Below, one piece after another: positions 51,222 to 64,000 of a stretch of 64,000 nt of DNA (position 1 is its first letter; every line of letters begins with the position of its first letter). The position numbers and the translations under genes are program-made. Location: the NCBI RefSeq assembly GCF_052425735.1, contig NC_135761.1, positions 19,406,001-19,470,000 of the forward strand. The letters run 5' to 3'. Below the pieces are notes generated by a model. It was not told the origin of the DNA, did not search any database, and saw nothing but the letters and a program-made list of their open reading frames with translations. Origin of the DNA: Oculina patagonica (lineage: Eukaryota).

Positions 51222-51295
51222 AGTAGTATAGGAGTTGGGGGTACGAGATCATAAAAATTTTTATGATCTCATACATCCCCAACTCCTATACTACT
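51222..51295. repeat. Terminal fold-back palindrome of the Polinton
   Basis: AGTAGTATAGGAGTTGGGG-GTACGAGATCATAAAAA|TTTTTATGATCTCATAC-AT-CCCCAACTCCTATACTACT; one mismatch and a 2-nt bulge. Confidence 0.9.
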
Positions 51296-51645
51296 CACAG
51301 CACTGGATCCAAAAATGGATTCAAATATTGGAACCAAATCTCGGATCCAAAACCGAAATTCAAACCCTAGAAAACAAGCCTTAAAAACCAAACCTTGCTA
51401 AACCCTTTAATCAAAATATCAAAATCTCTTATACTCTTTTTCAAAATTTTGAAAACAGTGCGTTTAAACAAGCCTTGTTATCATAACTTTAATATCAATC
51501 TGGAAAACCAAGCGAAGCCGAGTTTTATGATGTTTTTGAAATTTATTTCAAAATCTCTTATACTCTTTTTTAAAAATCTTGCATCTTAGTGCGTTTAATT
51601 ATTCCTTTTATCAAGTTGGATTCTAGTGCGTTTAAAATGAACGTC

Positions 51646-51873
51646 TTATATTACATTTTCAATATAATATTTTTGTATTTTTATCAGATTTTTGAACATG
51701 TTTTTATGTAGGATCATATTTGATATAATACCGAGATCAGTACAAATGTTAACTAATCTATTTGATTGTTCCTTTTCACTTAATTGTAAGAAAAGTGTAT
51801 TGTCTTTAATGCAATGTTTTTCTATGATATTCATCATCTCAACGAATTTTTCTTTGATGTAATTTGATGTCAT
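51646..51873 (-). CDS. Viral hypothetical protein (75 aa)
   Basis: ATG preceded by ATATTATA like other viral genes. Confidence 0.55.
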   Translation of the reverse strand: MTSNYIKEKFVEMMNIIEKHCIKDNTLFLQLSEKEQSNRLVNICTDLGIISNMILHKNMFKNLIKIQKYYIENVI

Positions 51874-51920
51874 TATAATATTTATTATACATTATTTTTT
51901 ATATCATTTATACAGTGCGT

Positions 51921-52121
51921 TTAATCTGATTTTTTGTTGTAAATGATGCTGTTATTAATATGCTTTTGTGTCAAAAGATGTCTCCATTTACCGGATAATT
52001 TATAGTTATAATTATTGCAAATGACACAAAACCATTCCTTTTTAGATGCATATAAAGTCTTGGACCTTCTTTTTGCATCCATCTTGTCTTTTTCAGTAAA
52101 ATATCTTCGAACTTCAACCAT
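51921..52121 (-). CDS. Small C2H2-type (HxxxxxH) zinc-finger protein
   Basis: CVIC..HLLTQKH with a basic N-terminus; TATATATAAATG start. Confidence 0.7.
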   Translation of the reverse strand: MVEVRRYFTEKDKMDAKRRSKTLYASKKEWFCVICNNYNYKLSGKWRHLLTQKHINNSIIYNKKSD

Positions 52122-52464
52122 TTATATATATACTTTAGAAATTTTTATATATTTTTAACCGACAGTTATGGTAAATTTTTAATGTTATATATTTCTTGTG
52201 ATTCGTTATTTTTTATATATATTTATGACTTTTTTAAAATTATGGTGATTAATATTTTATAGTTCAAGGTTAAACATCTGCATTATTGTCATGGTTTCAT
52301 AATATTTGGTTCAATACAATAGATTCGAATGTTCTATTGTTTATATTAACTAACCAATCATATTACAATAAACTTTTATACAAACTTTTATATAAACGTT
52401 TGTCATAAAATAAACTTTTATTCTCAGAATTGATTCAAGATGCCTAAGTCAATAAGCACGAATT

Positions 52465-53490
52465 TTATATATGTTGTAGATCCTTCATTGGTATCCAACT
52501 ATTAAAATCATCATTATATCCTTTCCACTTCACTAAAGCTTGTTTCTTCTTATAATCCCTCCGAATGACTTTATCAATTCTGAATACGTCCTGTTTTGCT
52601 TTTAACAGTTCAGGTTCATAAAAACTTCCTTGTATGTCTTCATTATTGAGATCTTTCAATTTGTAAGTAATAGGATTAGTGTATTGTATCTTATCGATGG
52701 TAAAAATTTCTTCTGTCCAGTTTGGCGTGTACCCTTTATCGAAAATATTTCTTTTATACTTCGATATTCGAACCTTATCACCTATTTTGAATTTCGGTTT
52801 CTGTTTTGATGTTTTCATATCACCGTATAAATTGAAATATACTAAGCCTTCATTCTTTTTCCTCGATGCTTCTACGGGTGTCATTTTAATGCTTGAGTGT
52901 TTGGTATTATTATACTGTTTTAACAGCTTGGGTAGCATATCGAGGTACGTCGTATTACCTTGAGCAGTGAATTGTTTCCACATTCGGGTTTTAATTGTCC
53001 TATTCCATCGTTCGCATACGCTACTTTTCTCTTCATTTTCGGTTGAGTATAGTGTTATACCATTCTTTTCCAAAAGCTCCTTCATATTTTTATTGTAATA
53101 CTCTTTCCCTTTATCAGTCCAAAGATATTGAGGTTTACGCCCCTCTTTGAATATGGTTTTGAATGCTTGAGTTACAGTTTCACCTTTTTTGTCTTTTAGA
53201 GGCACTATCCAACCATATTTACTGAAAACATCCAGTACCATGAGAAGATATCTATATCCCTTGTTCCATTTACTAAACTGTTGCATTTCTACCAAATCCG
53301 AACACCATATTTCATCAATATGGTTAACTATAACACGTCGTTTAGTAAAGTTACGTTTTATTGCTGTATGTAATTCATCAGCTAATTTTTCTTGCCATTT
53401 TTCTTCACCTGTCGTTTTTTTACGTTTTTTTTGGCTTAACACCCAAACCCAACTTTTCCTTTGTTGCAATGGTATTACGAGCAATAGCAT
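52465..53490 (-). CDS. Retroviral-like (rve) integrase with C-terminal chromodomain
   Basis: WCSD, LWTDKG, SVCERWNRT catalytic DDE; FRIDKVI..ALVKWKGY..NSWIP chromodomain; GYTPNWTEEIF Polinton motif. Confidence 0.95.
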   Translation of the reverse strand: MLLLVIPLQQRKSWVWVLSQKKRKKTTGEEKWQEKLADELHTAIKRNFTKRRVIVNHIDEIWCSDLVEMQQFSKWNKGYRYLLMVLDVFSKYGWIVPLKDKKGETVTQAFKTIFKEGRKPQYLWTDKGKEYYNKNMKELLEKNGITLYSTENEEKSSVCERWNRTIKTRMWKQFTAQGNTTYLDMLPKLLKQYNNTKHSSIKMTPVEASRKKNEGLVYFNLYGDMKTSKQKPKFKIGDKVRISKYKRNIFDKGYTPNWTEEIFTIDKIQYTNPITYKLKDLNNEDIQGSFYEPELLKAKQDVFRIDKVIRRDYKKKQALVKWKGYNDDFNSWIPMKDLQHI

Positions 53491-62354: not shown

Positions 62355-62843
62355 ATGACTAAACATCGAAAATGCATATTTACATGGAACCATATATCAA
62401 GCGAACTTACTGAAGAACAAATTATAGAATTGAAAGCTTATTATCAAACATATCATCGAAAATGTTGGGCTTATAAGCAGGCTGTTAAACGTTTCAAAAA
62501 ATGGAAATTATTAGGGAATTCATTGTCTATTCTCTTTGCATCCGGCTCCCTTGTATCAAGTATTGCTACAGGAGGTGTTAGTTTGGTTGCAATTAGTACA
62601 ATAGCGCTTTTAATACAAGGCTGGATGCATCATCAAAATCTCGATTTAAAAATTCAAAATAGTACATATGCATATCAGAGCTACCAGCATTTACTCAACT
62701 CAATTAAAAACACGATGAGATGCGGTGATTACAATCCGTCTAGCGTCATAATTTCAATGAAGAACATTGACGATTATGTGACGGATAGCGGGCCTATAAT
62801 CGACAAGTACCTACGAAAATATGATAAGAAATTTATTGGATGA
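62355..62843 (+). CDS. Two-TM helical hairpin protein (SLATT-like)
   Basis: YHRKCWAYKQAVKRFKK followed by two hydrophobic segments and a helical tail YQSYQHLL. Confidence 0.7.
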   Translation: MTKHRKCIFTWNHISSELTEEQIIELKAYYQTYHRKCWAYKQAVKRFKKWKLLGNSLSILFASGSLVSSIATGGVSLVAISTIALLIQGWMHHQNLDLKIQNSTYAYQSYQHLLNSIKNTMRCGDYNPSSVIISMKNIDDYVTDSGPIIDKYLRKYDKKFIG

Positions 62844-63393
62844 TCCGATTTATTTCGCCAAATTTTAATTCTAAAATCTCATTCCAATACAATTGATAAT
62901 AGGCTAACGTTTTCTTGCTTTTGCTAATTTTGATAAATTCACAAGGTAGATTCATCATCAAAAAAAGCTGTTTAATTATGAATTTGGTTGATATAAGTCT
63001 TTTTCTACCTTTGTTTACAACAGGAATAGCGCCGGATTCGATAATATCAAACACTTTATAAATTCGATTCCTTTGATCACTAGTCAATTGTACCCTATTT
63101 TTAATACATAAATCGTTTAAAACATTCTCAACGTGATACTTCCGATGATATACCGATTTTCGGCGTATTTTATCCATATTTGCATAAAAATCAATGAACT
63201 CATTGTAATAAATAGAACCATGAACCAAACCGCAATTAATACAAACATTTACACCGTTTTGATTTGACATATCCTGCTTACTACAGCAAGGCTTAGCATC
63301 ATTGTTATCTTCTATCAATAGTTGATCGCATAAATGGCATATAGTTTCTTTTAAAATTTTTAATTCATCGTGGATTTCAGAATTACAAACCAT
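62833..63393 (-). CDS. VLTF3 (poxvirus A2)/TFIIB-like late transcription factor
   Basis: CC..VCINCGLV zinc ribbon, YHRKYHVENVL, RKRLIS..FIIKQL..L..KSKKTL..Y..W. Confidence 0.75.
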   Translation of the reverse strand: MVCNSEIHDELKILKETICHLCDQLLIEDNNDAKPCCSKQDMSNQNGVNVCINCGLVHGSIYYNEFIDFYANMDKIRRKSVYHRKYHVENVLNDLCIKNRVQLTSDQRNRIYKVFDIIESGAIPVVNKGRKRLISTKFIIKQLFLMMNLPCEFIKISKSKKTLAYYQLYWNEILELKFGEINRIIQ

Positions 63394-63436
63394 TATATAT
63401 ATAACACATATAACTTCACGGCACAGCTGTTTTGGC

Positions 63437-63615
63437 AGTAAATTTTAGAGTAAACTTTTTGAGTAAACTTTTTGAGTAAACTTTTTGAGTAAACTTTTTG
63501 AGTAAATTTTACTCAAAAAGTTTATATATAAAAAACTTTTTACTTGTTGAAATATGATTGGTCAATAGAAATCAAACCAGATTAAAAAACCTGCTGACGC
63601 GTCAGCAGGTTTTTT
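63437..63615. promoter_or_regulatory. Viral control region: 4 x 13-bp direct repeats, 17-bp-arm inverted repeat, TATA, CCAAT and a perfect 32-bp palindrome
   Basis: (GAGTAAACTTTTT)x4 at 63448-63499; IR 63490-63524; AAAAAACCTGCTGACG|CGTCAGCAGGTTTTTT at 63584-63615. Confidence 0.7.
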
Positions 63616-63683
63616 CGGTCAATGGTTTAGTCATTAATAATTTATAACTTATGGCTAAAACCGTAAACTGAATAATTATGTAT

Positions 63684-63935
63684 TTAATGTTGATCCTTAC
63701 GAGGCCTTCCACGTCGTCGTTTCTGGTCTTCAGGTTTACACTCTAAACGTGCATGATTTTTGTCTTCATTTGATATTTCAGATCTGCTATTTAGGTTCGA
63801 AGATAGCATTTTAATAATACAAATATTAGCTTCAAGGATGCTCTGAATACACCACATTTTATTAATGAAGACTATATCATTCGAGCTTTCATCAGCTTCT
63901 GGCAGGTGTTTGATATTTAATGTAATATCACTCAT
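63684..63935 (-). CDS. Small AT-hook protein
   Basis: C-terminal KRRRGRPRK; TATATATAGAATG start. Confidence 0.65.
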   Translation of the reverse strand: MSDITLNIKHLPEADESSNDIVFINKMWCIQSILEANICIIKMLSSNLNSRSEISNEDKNHARLECKPEDQKRRRGRPRKDQH

Positions 63936-64000
63936 TCTATATATATATATTAAAGAAAATAATTATCACTTAAACGCACTATAAAAAACTGAGGGAAATC

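Follow-up and report, generated by a model that had tools for sequence, protein, structure and literature searches.

Polintons and adintoviruses replicate by protein priming with a polymerase that joins a terminal protein (TP), a vOTU domain, and a family B DNA polymerase that is primed by protein (pPolB). They integrate through an rve integrase with a 6-bp duplication, and have a jelly-roll capsid, packaging by an ATPase, and maturation by a protease. In the gag-pro-pol arrangement of retroviruses, enzymes that lack a start of their own follow a structural gene in its -1 frame, at X_XXY_YYZ heptamers such as A_AAA_AAC, and some relatives carry in-frame fusions. For Alpha adintoviruses and animal Polintons, the available part of PMC8502044 lists an OTU domain with a pfam03175 PolB, an rve integrase, an FtsK/A32 ATPase, hexon, penton, adenain, PLA2X, and inverted repeats. 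Coral Polinton expansions are also published, and the stony coral polintoviruses number, in the accessible text, many copies of full length in a coral genome that encode capsid, ATPase, integrase, and PolB and carry terminal inverted repeats (TIRs) (PMC11131425). An element of this kind is found in Oculina patagonica, where it starts at position 51222 of a 64,000-nucleotide window (assembly GCF_052425735.1, contig NC_135761.1, positions 19,406,001 to 19,470,000, forward strand). Public runs labelled coral metagenome contain the stretch, and the nearest named proteins are hypothetical ones from a stony coral. This complete 18.2-kb Alpha-type adintovirus, inserted with a 6-bp duplication into a host repeat, belongs to a family that probably makes integrase and protease as -1 fusions from the upstream particle-protein gene.

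The element contains the genes by which a Polinton/Maverick is recognised (a protein-primed family B polymerase, a retroviral-type integrase, major and minor capsid proteins, a packaging ATPase, and a protease), together with the OTU domain, pfam03175-class PolB, and PLA2X gene of Alpha adintoviruses. Judged from its sequence, it is an Alpha-type adintovirus/Polinton, a kind already known in stony corals. Pfam matches above or near cut-off were obtained for rve plus chromo, Phospholip_A2_4, Pox_A32, a DJR-like family, and VLTF3, and Peptidase_C5 fell just below cut-off. All 22 motifs sought were present. The initial annotation of the window, which had proposed a Polinton/adintovirus with a full virion module and intact catalytic motifs, is borne out by the identified capsid proteins, ATPase, protease, and phospholipase A2 (PLA2), and by the catalytic motifs of the integrase, ATPase, protease, PLA2, and pPolB. 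Its fifteen packed, unbroken open reading frames (ORFs) hold in part: 16 closely packed non-shadow ORFs of at least 60 amino acids occupy 51222-64000, but two of them are not ordinary genes, because the protease ORF has its first ATG within the conserved domain, and the leader that holds the integrase ORF's ATG occurs at this position in just 3 of 37 loci.

The complete element measures 18,187 bp. Its window part is 51222..64000, and the remaining 5,408 bp lie in L001, the neighbouring stretch fetched downstream from the 529-Mb genome (L001:1001-6408), which holds ORF74, pPolB, ORF213, and the right TIR, followed by ATTGAT. At 51222 the GC content drops to about 30%, and AGTAGT follows directly after the left target-site duplication (TSD), ATTGAT (51216..51221, plus strand). 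The left TIR (51222..51445, plus strand) is 224 bp long and identical to the right TIR (L001:6185-6408) at 224 of 224 positions. It opens with an imperfect palindrome of 74 nucleotides (51222..51295, plus strand), which begins AGTAGT and has a 19-bp outer stem and an 11-bp inner stem. AGT-ended TIRs and a 6-bp TSD are as in Polinton/Maverick elements. The initial annotation had predicted ATTGAT at the right end, with pPolB and a second TIR before it; the right TSD is found at L001:6409-6414, and the 1253-amino-acid pPolB and right TIR are in L001. A single ATTGAT joins both flanks in 3/3 aligned paralogues of the interrupted host repeat, so the junction at 51222 is a true insertion rather than a misassembly. 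Every base of the element is covered by other Polinton copies, and therefore no host DNA is nested in it, as had also been claimed.

The rve integrase with its C-terminal chromodomain (52465..53490, minus strand; rve E 9e-14, chromo E 6e-8, DDE motifs) has a conserved part that starts only near 53397. Upstream on the same strand is PLA2X (53420..54121), a protein named from PMC8502044 that consists of a DUF5679 domain, a parvovirus-type phospholipase A2 (Phospholip_A2_4 E 9e-9), and a basic tail. The junction between them (53394..53440, minus strand) carries an A-rich slippery heptamer that is a candidate -1 site in the family, although the usual register is lost in the window copy. Among 37 loci of the same genome, the integrase open stretch has an ATG in 5 and no start codon in 32, and the heptamer A_AAA_AAC stands in the integrase register at all 37, against a background of 0.6% of 3,211 windows. 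Relative to the heptamer, PLA2X is in the -1 register at 24 loci, in frame at 2, and out of register at 11, including the window copy. Contigs from four of 24 listed public runs show length variants at the integrase A-run, so the state of the window copy may be real or an assembly error.

The same arrangement extends beyond this genome. Six of eight metagenome relatives are in the -1 register with a heptamer (G_GGA_AAC in one of them), one is fused in frame, and one is unclear. Neither of two viral contigs has the heptamer in register; one of them is in -1 with an A-run only and the other in frame before a break. Open frames of at least 488 amino acids, the length as for a fusion, occur at 15 of 150 scored integrase loci. 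The window part of the element has only three long A/T runs, two of which are at the integrase and protease junctions.

The adenain-type protease (59533..59994, plus strand) has His, Asp, Gln, and Cys motifs, and a profile search with it finds African swine fever virus S273R and adenain. In the window copy the first ATG, at 59635, comes 27 codons after its conserved N-terminal motif, at 59554. The frame overlaps ORF152 (59072..59530, plus strand), a basic protein with a PPFIGxW motif that is likely a virion core component, and the overlap (59455..59554, plus strand) includes an A-run, a candidate slip site from which the protease frame is open in -1. Among 54 protease loci (one duplicate scaffold and 15 Beta-type loci included), 42 have the protease in the -1 frame of ORF152, 4 have the two fused, and 8 have another relation, and in all 54 the protease frame is open from the A-run. 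No ATG precedes the protease motif in 27 of these loci, an ATG occurs six codons before it in 22, and only a distant one is present in 5. Of 40 metagenome protease loci found, 24 were inspected: six share this arrangement, three are degraded, and ordinary starts prevail among the distant remainder. In 13 chosen overlaps the protease frame is open throughout, and synonymous shuffles of the five long ones give P values of 0.027-0.082 each (0.87 for the window copy).

These patterns suggest that Gag-pol-like frameshifting is likely in this family. Ribosomes translating the PLA2X message would slip at A_AAA_AAC into the integrase frame, yielding PLA2X-integrase as a minor product, which would enter the particle and be cleaved there by the protease; this is the account we favour, with some reserve. 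ORF152 would similarly slip into the protease at the longer A-run, either by the ribosome or by the polymerase, a step whose chances are put slightly below even. In the manner of Gag-Pol, small amounts of the ORF152-protease and PLA2X-integrase proteins would deliver the two enzymes to the particle.

Several observations weigh against frameshifting. A stimulatory RNA structure would be expected 5-9 nucleotides behind the heptamer; folding into nested stems at 13 junctions gave weak stems, with z-scores from -2.0 to +1.0, and none stands out. In the distant viral contig L192 the canonical heptamer is missing and a Met lies close to the motif, and the integrase of the Beta-type family of the same genome has its own ATG. 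Because an ATG lies six codons upstream in 22 of 54 protease loci and a Met lies inside the motif in four, some protease loci need no slip. The 13 overlap cases were picked by the authors and share ancestry. Finally, assembly error or decay does affect the A-runs, because 11/37 integrase and 8/54 protease junctions are out of register and 5/15 Beta-type proteases are broken internally.

Alternately, the integrase and protease might be reached by splicing, a non-AUG start, or reinitiation, with A-runs that merely encode basic tails. ORF152 stop codons often stand in a GTAA context resembling a splice donor, ATT codons occur just before the protease motif in the window subfamily, and the Beta-type family has an ATGA overlap; that no stimulatory structure stood out behind the heptamer also fits. 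This explanation is unlikely, since the heptamer register is fixed, with another canonical heptamer once in its place, near-cognate starts are not conserved across lineages, and relatives have in-frame fusions while the long overlaps remain open. The genes could also be truly fused in frame, with the offsets produced by homopolymer errors of assembly or by decay after insertion. Run lengths do vary among near-identical copies, and the length variants in public-run contigs and the broken Beta-type proteases point the same way. Yet the -1 state is the majority at two junctions and in many subfamilies, and independent metagenome contigs show it again. Most lineages have only a short heptamer run, G_GGA_AAC occurs without a long run, and PLA2X and ORF152 retain conserved tails in their own frames beyond the slip site, all of which make in-frame fusion very improbable.

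The proposed frameshifts differ from retroviral gag-pro-pol in that they concern a DNA virus with two separate transcription units on opposite strands, and perhaps in lacking a downstream pseudoknot (the folding covered nested stems). KnotInFrame has suggested slippery sites in adintoviruses, in penton and in possible hexon-adenain fusions (PMC11071296). Here PLA2X and ORF152, rather than hexon, act as the donors, start codons are missing from the acceptors, and the integrase is involved; integrase frameshifting is unmentioned in the part of that paper available. The available text of PMC8502044 mentions no programmed frameshift or splice (its one "frameshift" concerns a fossil), and palindromic ends were not searched for there. 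Among the matches listed in a literature search of partial coverage, no paper describes an integrase frameshift or palindromic or unlike ends in animal Polintons, and maps outside the main texts of PMC8502044 and PMC11071296 may show fusions. These features bear on how Polintons express and deliver their integrase and on whether those of animals have a free phase. If the frameshifts are real, they link the integrase to a protein of the virion, a point in favour of packaging. Current integrase and protease annotations would then have wrong starts, and calls of "intact" elements based on ATG-initiated ORFs would be unreliable.

The element is one of many copies. A search of the same genome scored 58 pPolB loci, 150 integrase loci, and 94 candidates for the capsid gene, of which about 30 loci have at least 89% identity and the others lie near 33%; the frames are mostly open. 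Thirty-four other copies were fetched, in separate pieces. A single stop-free match covers the major capsid protein in 31/32, the penton in 30/32, the protease in 31/32, the ATPase in 29/32, and the pPolB core in 18/19, so the window copy is not exceptional: open core genes are usual among its sisters. When the 18,187-bp element was painted, in two pieces, against 33 other copies, 15 segments (about 14 blocks) accounted for it with 37 mismatches in total and 18 sites matched by no copy, whereas the best single copy mismatches 1,290 of 12,779 window bases. The gene-by-gene profile differs between all copies except one duplicate scaffold. The 18 unmatched sites among 18,187, together with the identical TIRs, agree with the recent integration put forward initially, and the insertion is likely recent and drawn from a freely recombining pool of related elements. 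The ability to reactivate that was also put forward is conjectural, and this copy is among the 11 of 37 with a PLA2X-integrase junction outside the usual register.

Both ends were found in 27 elements of 15.4-19.1 kb, after exclusion of 8 of the 34 fetched copies in which an end was not located or the scaffold was a duplicate. A perfect 6-bp duplication flanks 26 of the 27, and 5 of 6 bp match in the remaining one. Eight of the 27 have unlike ends (64-92% alike over 150 nucleotides), all with perfect duplications. Because the duplication would not survive crossing-over from one locus to another, these elements likely integrated as recombinants or were converted later. Unlike ends with perfect duplications give indirect support to a phase in which several genomes would replicate together. 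For the same reason, the age of these elements cannot be read from the identity of their TIRs, and counts based on TIR filters are too low: the filter of PMC11131425 (2% mismatch), as given in the accessible text, would miss the 8 unlike-ended elements. "Palindrom", "target site", and "phospholipase" are absent from the portion of that text searched. Exchange of replication and capsid modules is also known from mosaicism in Polisuviricotina (10.64898/2026.10.13.758929; 10.1101/2023.08.22.554363), as far as the accessible parts describe it; here the mosaicism is fine-scaled, very recent, within one genome, and includes unlike termini.

The mosaic pattern might be an assembly artefact of long near-identical repeats, as assembly is difficult for 18-kb repeats that share blocks at 99-100% identity. 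This is highly improbable: flanks match by TSD in all but one of the 27 elements, the window copy has about 13 donor switches, often over 100-1,000 bp, while retaining private sites, and contigs of other runs show further rearranged joints.

A different possibility is that the element spreads within the genome only, as a transposon, that gene conversion among the integrated copies produces the mosaics, and that no virion is formed. No close relative was found in IMG/VR, and the summed contig depth, which is not a copy number, shows no clear excess over the approximately 30 integrated capsid-block copies. Scans of IMG/VR with single major capsid protein and integrase queries found no relative; alignment-based scans gave 45 distant proteases and 2 distant integrases, and no virome relative with integrase identity above 59% was found. 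Against a transposon-only existence, 29-31 of 32 copies keep open frames for capsid, penton, ATPase, and protease although the proteins diverge by up to 70%, and simple crossovers between loci are excluded by the perfect duplications around unlike ends. Hallmark genes are also expressed in another coral, according to the accessible part of PMC11131425. A purely intragenomic life is thus rather unlikely. Public run X20, guessed to be RNA, was rejected as a transcript source because it covers non-coding repeat DNA too. The IMG/VR contig L192 (15,597 bp) is a distant adintovirus-like sequence. Each end of the contig carries an inverted terminal repeat that does not begin with AGTAGT, and host DNA does not flank it.

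All 54 ends of the 27 elements begin with AGTAGT and an imperfect palindrome, which is either 70-74 nucleotides long or of a 59-65-nucleotide type of other sequence. Among 16 distinct variants of the first type, two-sided changes occur in 9 of 30 pairs, above 500/500 shuffles. This score is inflated by related sequences, and a control slid by +1 scored as many two-sided changes (9 pairs, 0.133), though with only 50% pairing. The orientation of the palindrome is fixed (96 ends one way, 0 the other), and flip-flop hairpin replication was rejected on this ground.

The pPolB (L001:1748-5509, 1253 amino acids; DNA_pol_B_2 E 5e-19) has exonuclease and polymerase motifs and an endonuclease VII insert (Endonuclease_7) with Cys/His motifs. 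A model of residues 90-420 (pLDDT 91) places residues 103-223 near the little-finger fold of Y-family polymerases (Z 8.2, root-mean-square deviation 3.4, 109 aligned) and residues 234-351 near OTU (Z 8.1, root-mean-square deviation 3.4, 95 aligned). In this predicted structure the N-terminal part is of the terminal-protein plus vOTU layout, which is described for pPolB in the accessible part of 10.1101/2024.03.18.585575. A sequence search of the PDB with pPolB gave no match. Endonuclease VII and chromo domains were already known in insect Mavericks (PMC5803895, in the part available).

Protein priming is the best reading of replication, with a terminal-protein domain that appears intact. Each palindromic end may fold on itself in the displaced single strand and act as a self-contained origin, and with such ends, genomes whose two ends differ could replicate and integrate. 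This role for the palindromes is conceivable, and it is proposed with more doubt than confidence. Instead, the palindromes might prime replication as parvovirus-type hairpins that the endonuclease VII domain resolves. Their presence at every end, the two-sided changes, and the Cys/His motifs of the insert are compatible with this, and hairpin priming has been proposed for protist elements in the available text of 10.64898/2026.07.28.741278. Parvovirus-type terminal resolution should invert the palindrome, however, which the fixed orientation contradicts, and pPolB retains the terminal-protein domain and the vOTU catalytic residues; hairpin priming is quite improbable. The Halocafeteria virophages and polinton-like viruses of that report likewise have palindromes at TIR ends beside the TSD, mostly in elements without pPolB as far as its accessible text goes, whereas here they accompany a full TP-vOTU-pPolB and have one fixed orientation. 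As a tentative overall scheme, a retrovirus-like double frameshift, with integrase produced solely as the PLA2X fusion and protease as the ORF152 fusion, may set the dose of integrase and protease and load the particle, and self-folding ends, which would make each end independent of the other, may keep a recombining swarm of unlike-ended genomes integrating.

The remaining genes lie on both strands. On the minus strand, in order of coordinate, are ORF75 (51646..51873), an accessory gene present in 3/34 fetched copies; ORF66 (51921..52121), perhaps a small zinc-finger-like accessory protein; ORF147 (54143..54586), with a DUF5679-like N-terminus; and the A32-like packaging ATPase (54599..55255; Walker A GQSNCGKT, Walker B IVVFDD). 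The DUF5679 N-terminus is duplicated, occurring in both PLA2X and ORF147 (53993-54504), and contigs of two public runs join the two repeats. The capsid block, on the plus strand, starts with ORF371 (55326..56441), which is conserved in the block and has no family match; neither it nor ORF152 received a family name from the searches. The minor capsid protein ORF250 (56454..57206) is predicted to have a penton fold, and its model (pLDDT 89) matches the mavirus penton (E 1e-11) and the adenovirus penton base (E 1e-8). It is followed by the basic protein ORF143 (57228..57659) and the double jelly-roll major capsid protein (57684..59033). ORF720 (60006..62168, plus strand), likely a fibre, has weak matches to tail fibres and trimeric adhesin stalks. 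It is highly mosaic among copies and is the most finely mosaic gene, with seven blocks, as expected of a receptor-binding protein. Beyond it are ORF162 (62355..62843, plus strand), a small membrane protein with a weak SLATT match, the VLTF3-like protein (62833..63393, minus strand), and the accessory ORF83 (63684..63935, minus strand). ORF74 (L001:1385-1609) and ORF213 (L001:5521-6162) lie on either side of pPolB.

Some of the other copies have features of their own. In L004-L007 and L010-L011 the TIR is nearly that of the window element (as is pPolB in L011) and the capsid block is only 31-45% identical, a case of module exchange. The duplicate scaffold, L068-L069 (C1078), repeats the C6 element and flanks of L034-L035 and is probably an uncollapsed haplotype. 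The AGTAGT palindromic end was not located in the fetched pieces of L050-L051 and L056-L057; other inverted repeats bound both, which are perhaps nested in or trimmed by host elements. The Beta-like family (L079-L093, L134-L145) is only 23% identical to the window element in pPolB and 22% in the integrase, and shares homologues of the ATPase, penton, major capsid protein, ORF152-like protein, and protease. Its integrase starts at an ATG, and its ATGA overlap at the protease comes right after an A-run.

The host repeat interrupted by the element (left part 50551..51221, plus strand; right part L001:6409-6602) is a high-copy sequence of about 865 bp that is 97% identical between copies, with 40 scored loci. 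Its copies often lie 1-5 kb from one another in inverted pairs, which makes a long TIR of some non-autonomous DNA transposon its probable identity; a partner was not found within 2.6 kb downstream of the element. A contig end of public run X2 at 51221 that continues into the right flank was considered as an empty allele of this locus and rejected, because the flank is this high-copy repeat. About 2 kb from the element, at 47852-48993, is a host gene with a collagen repeat and a CTHRC1 C-terminal domain.

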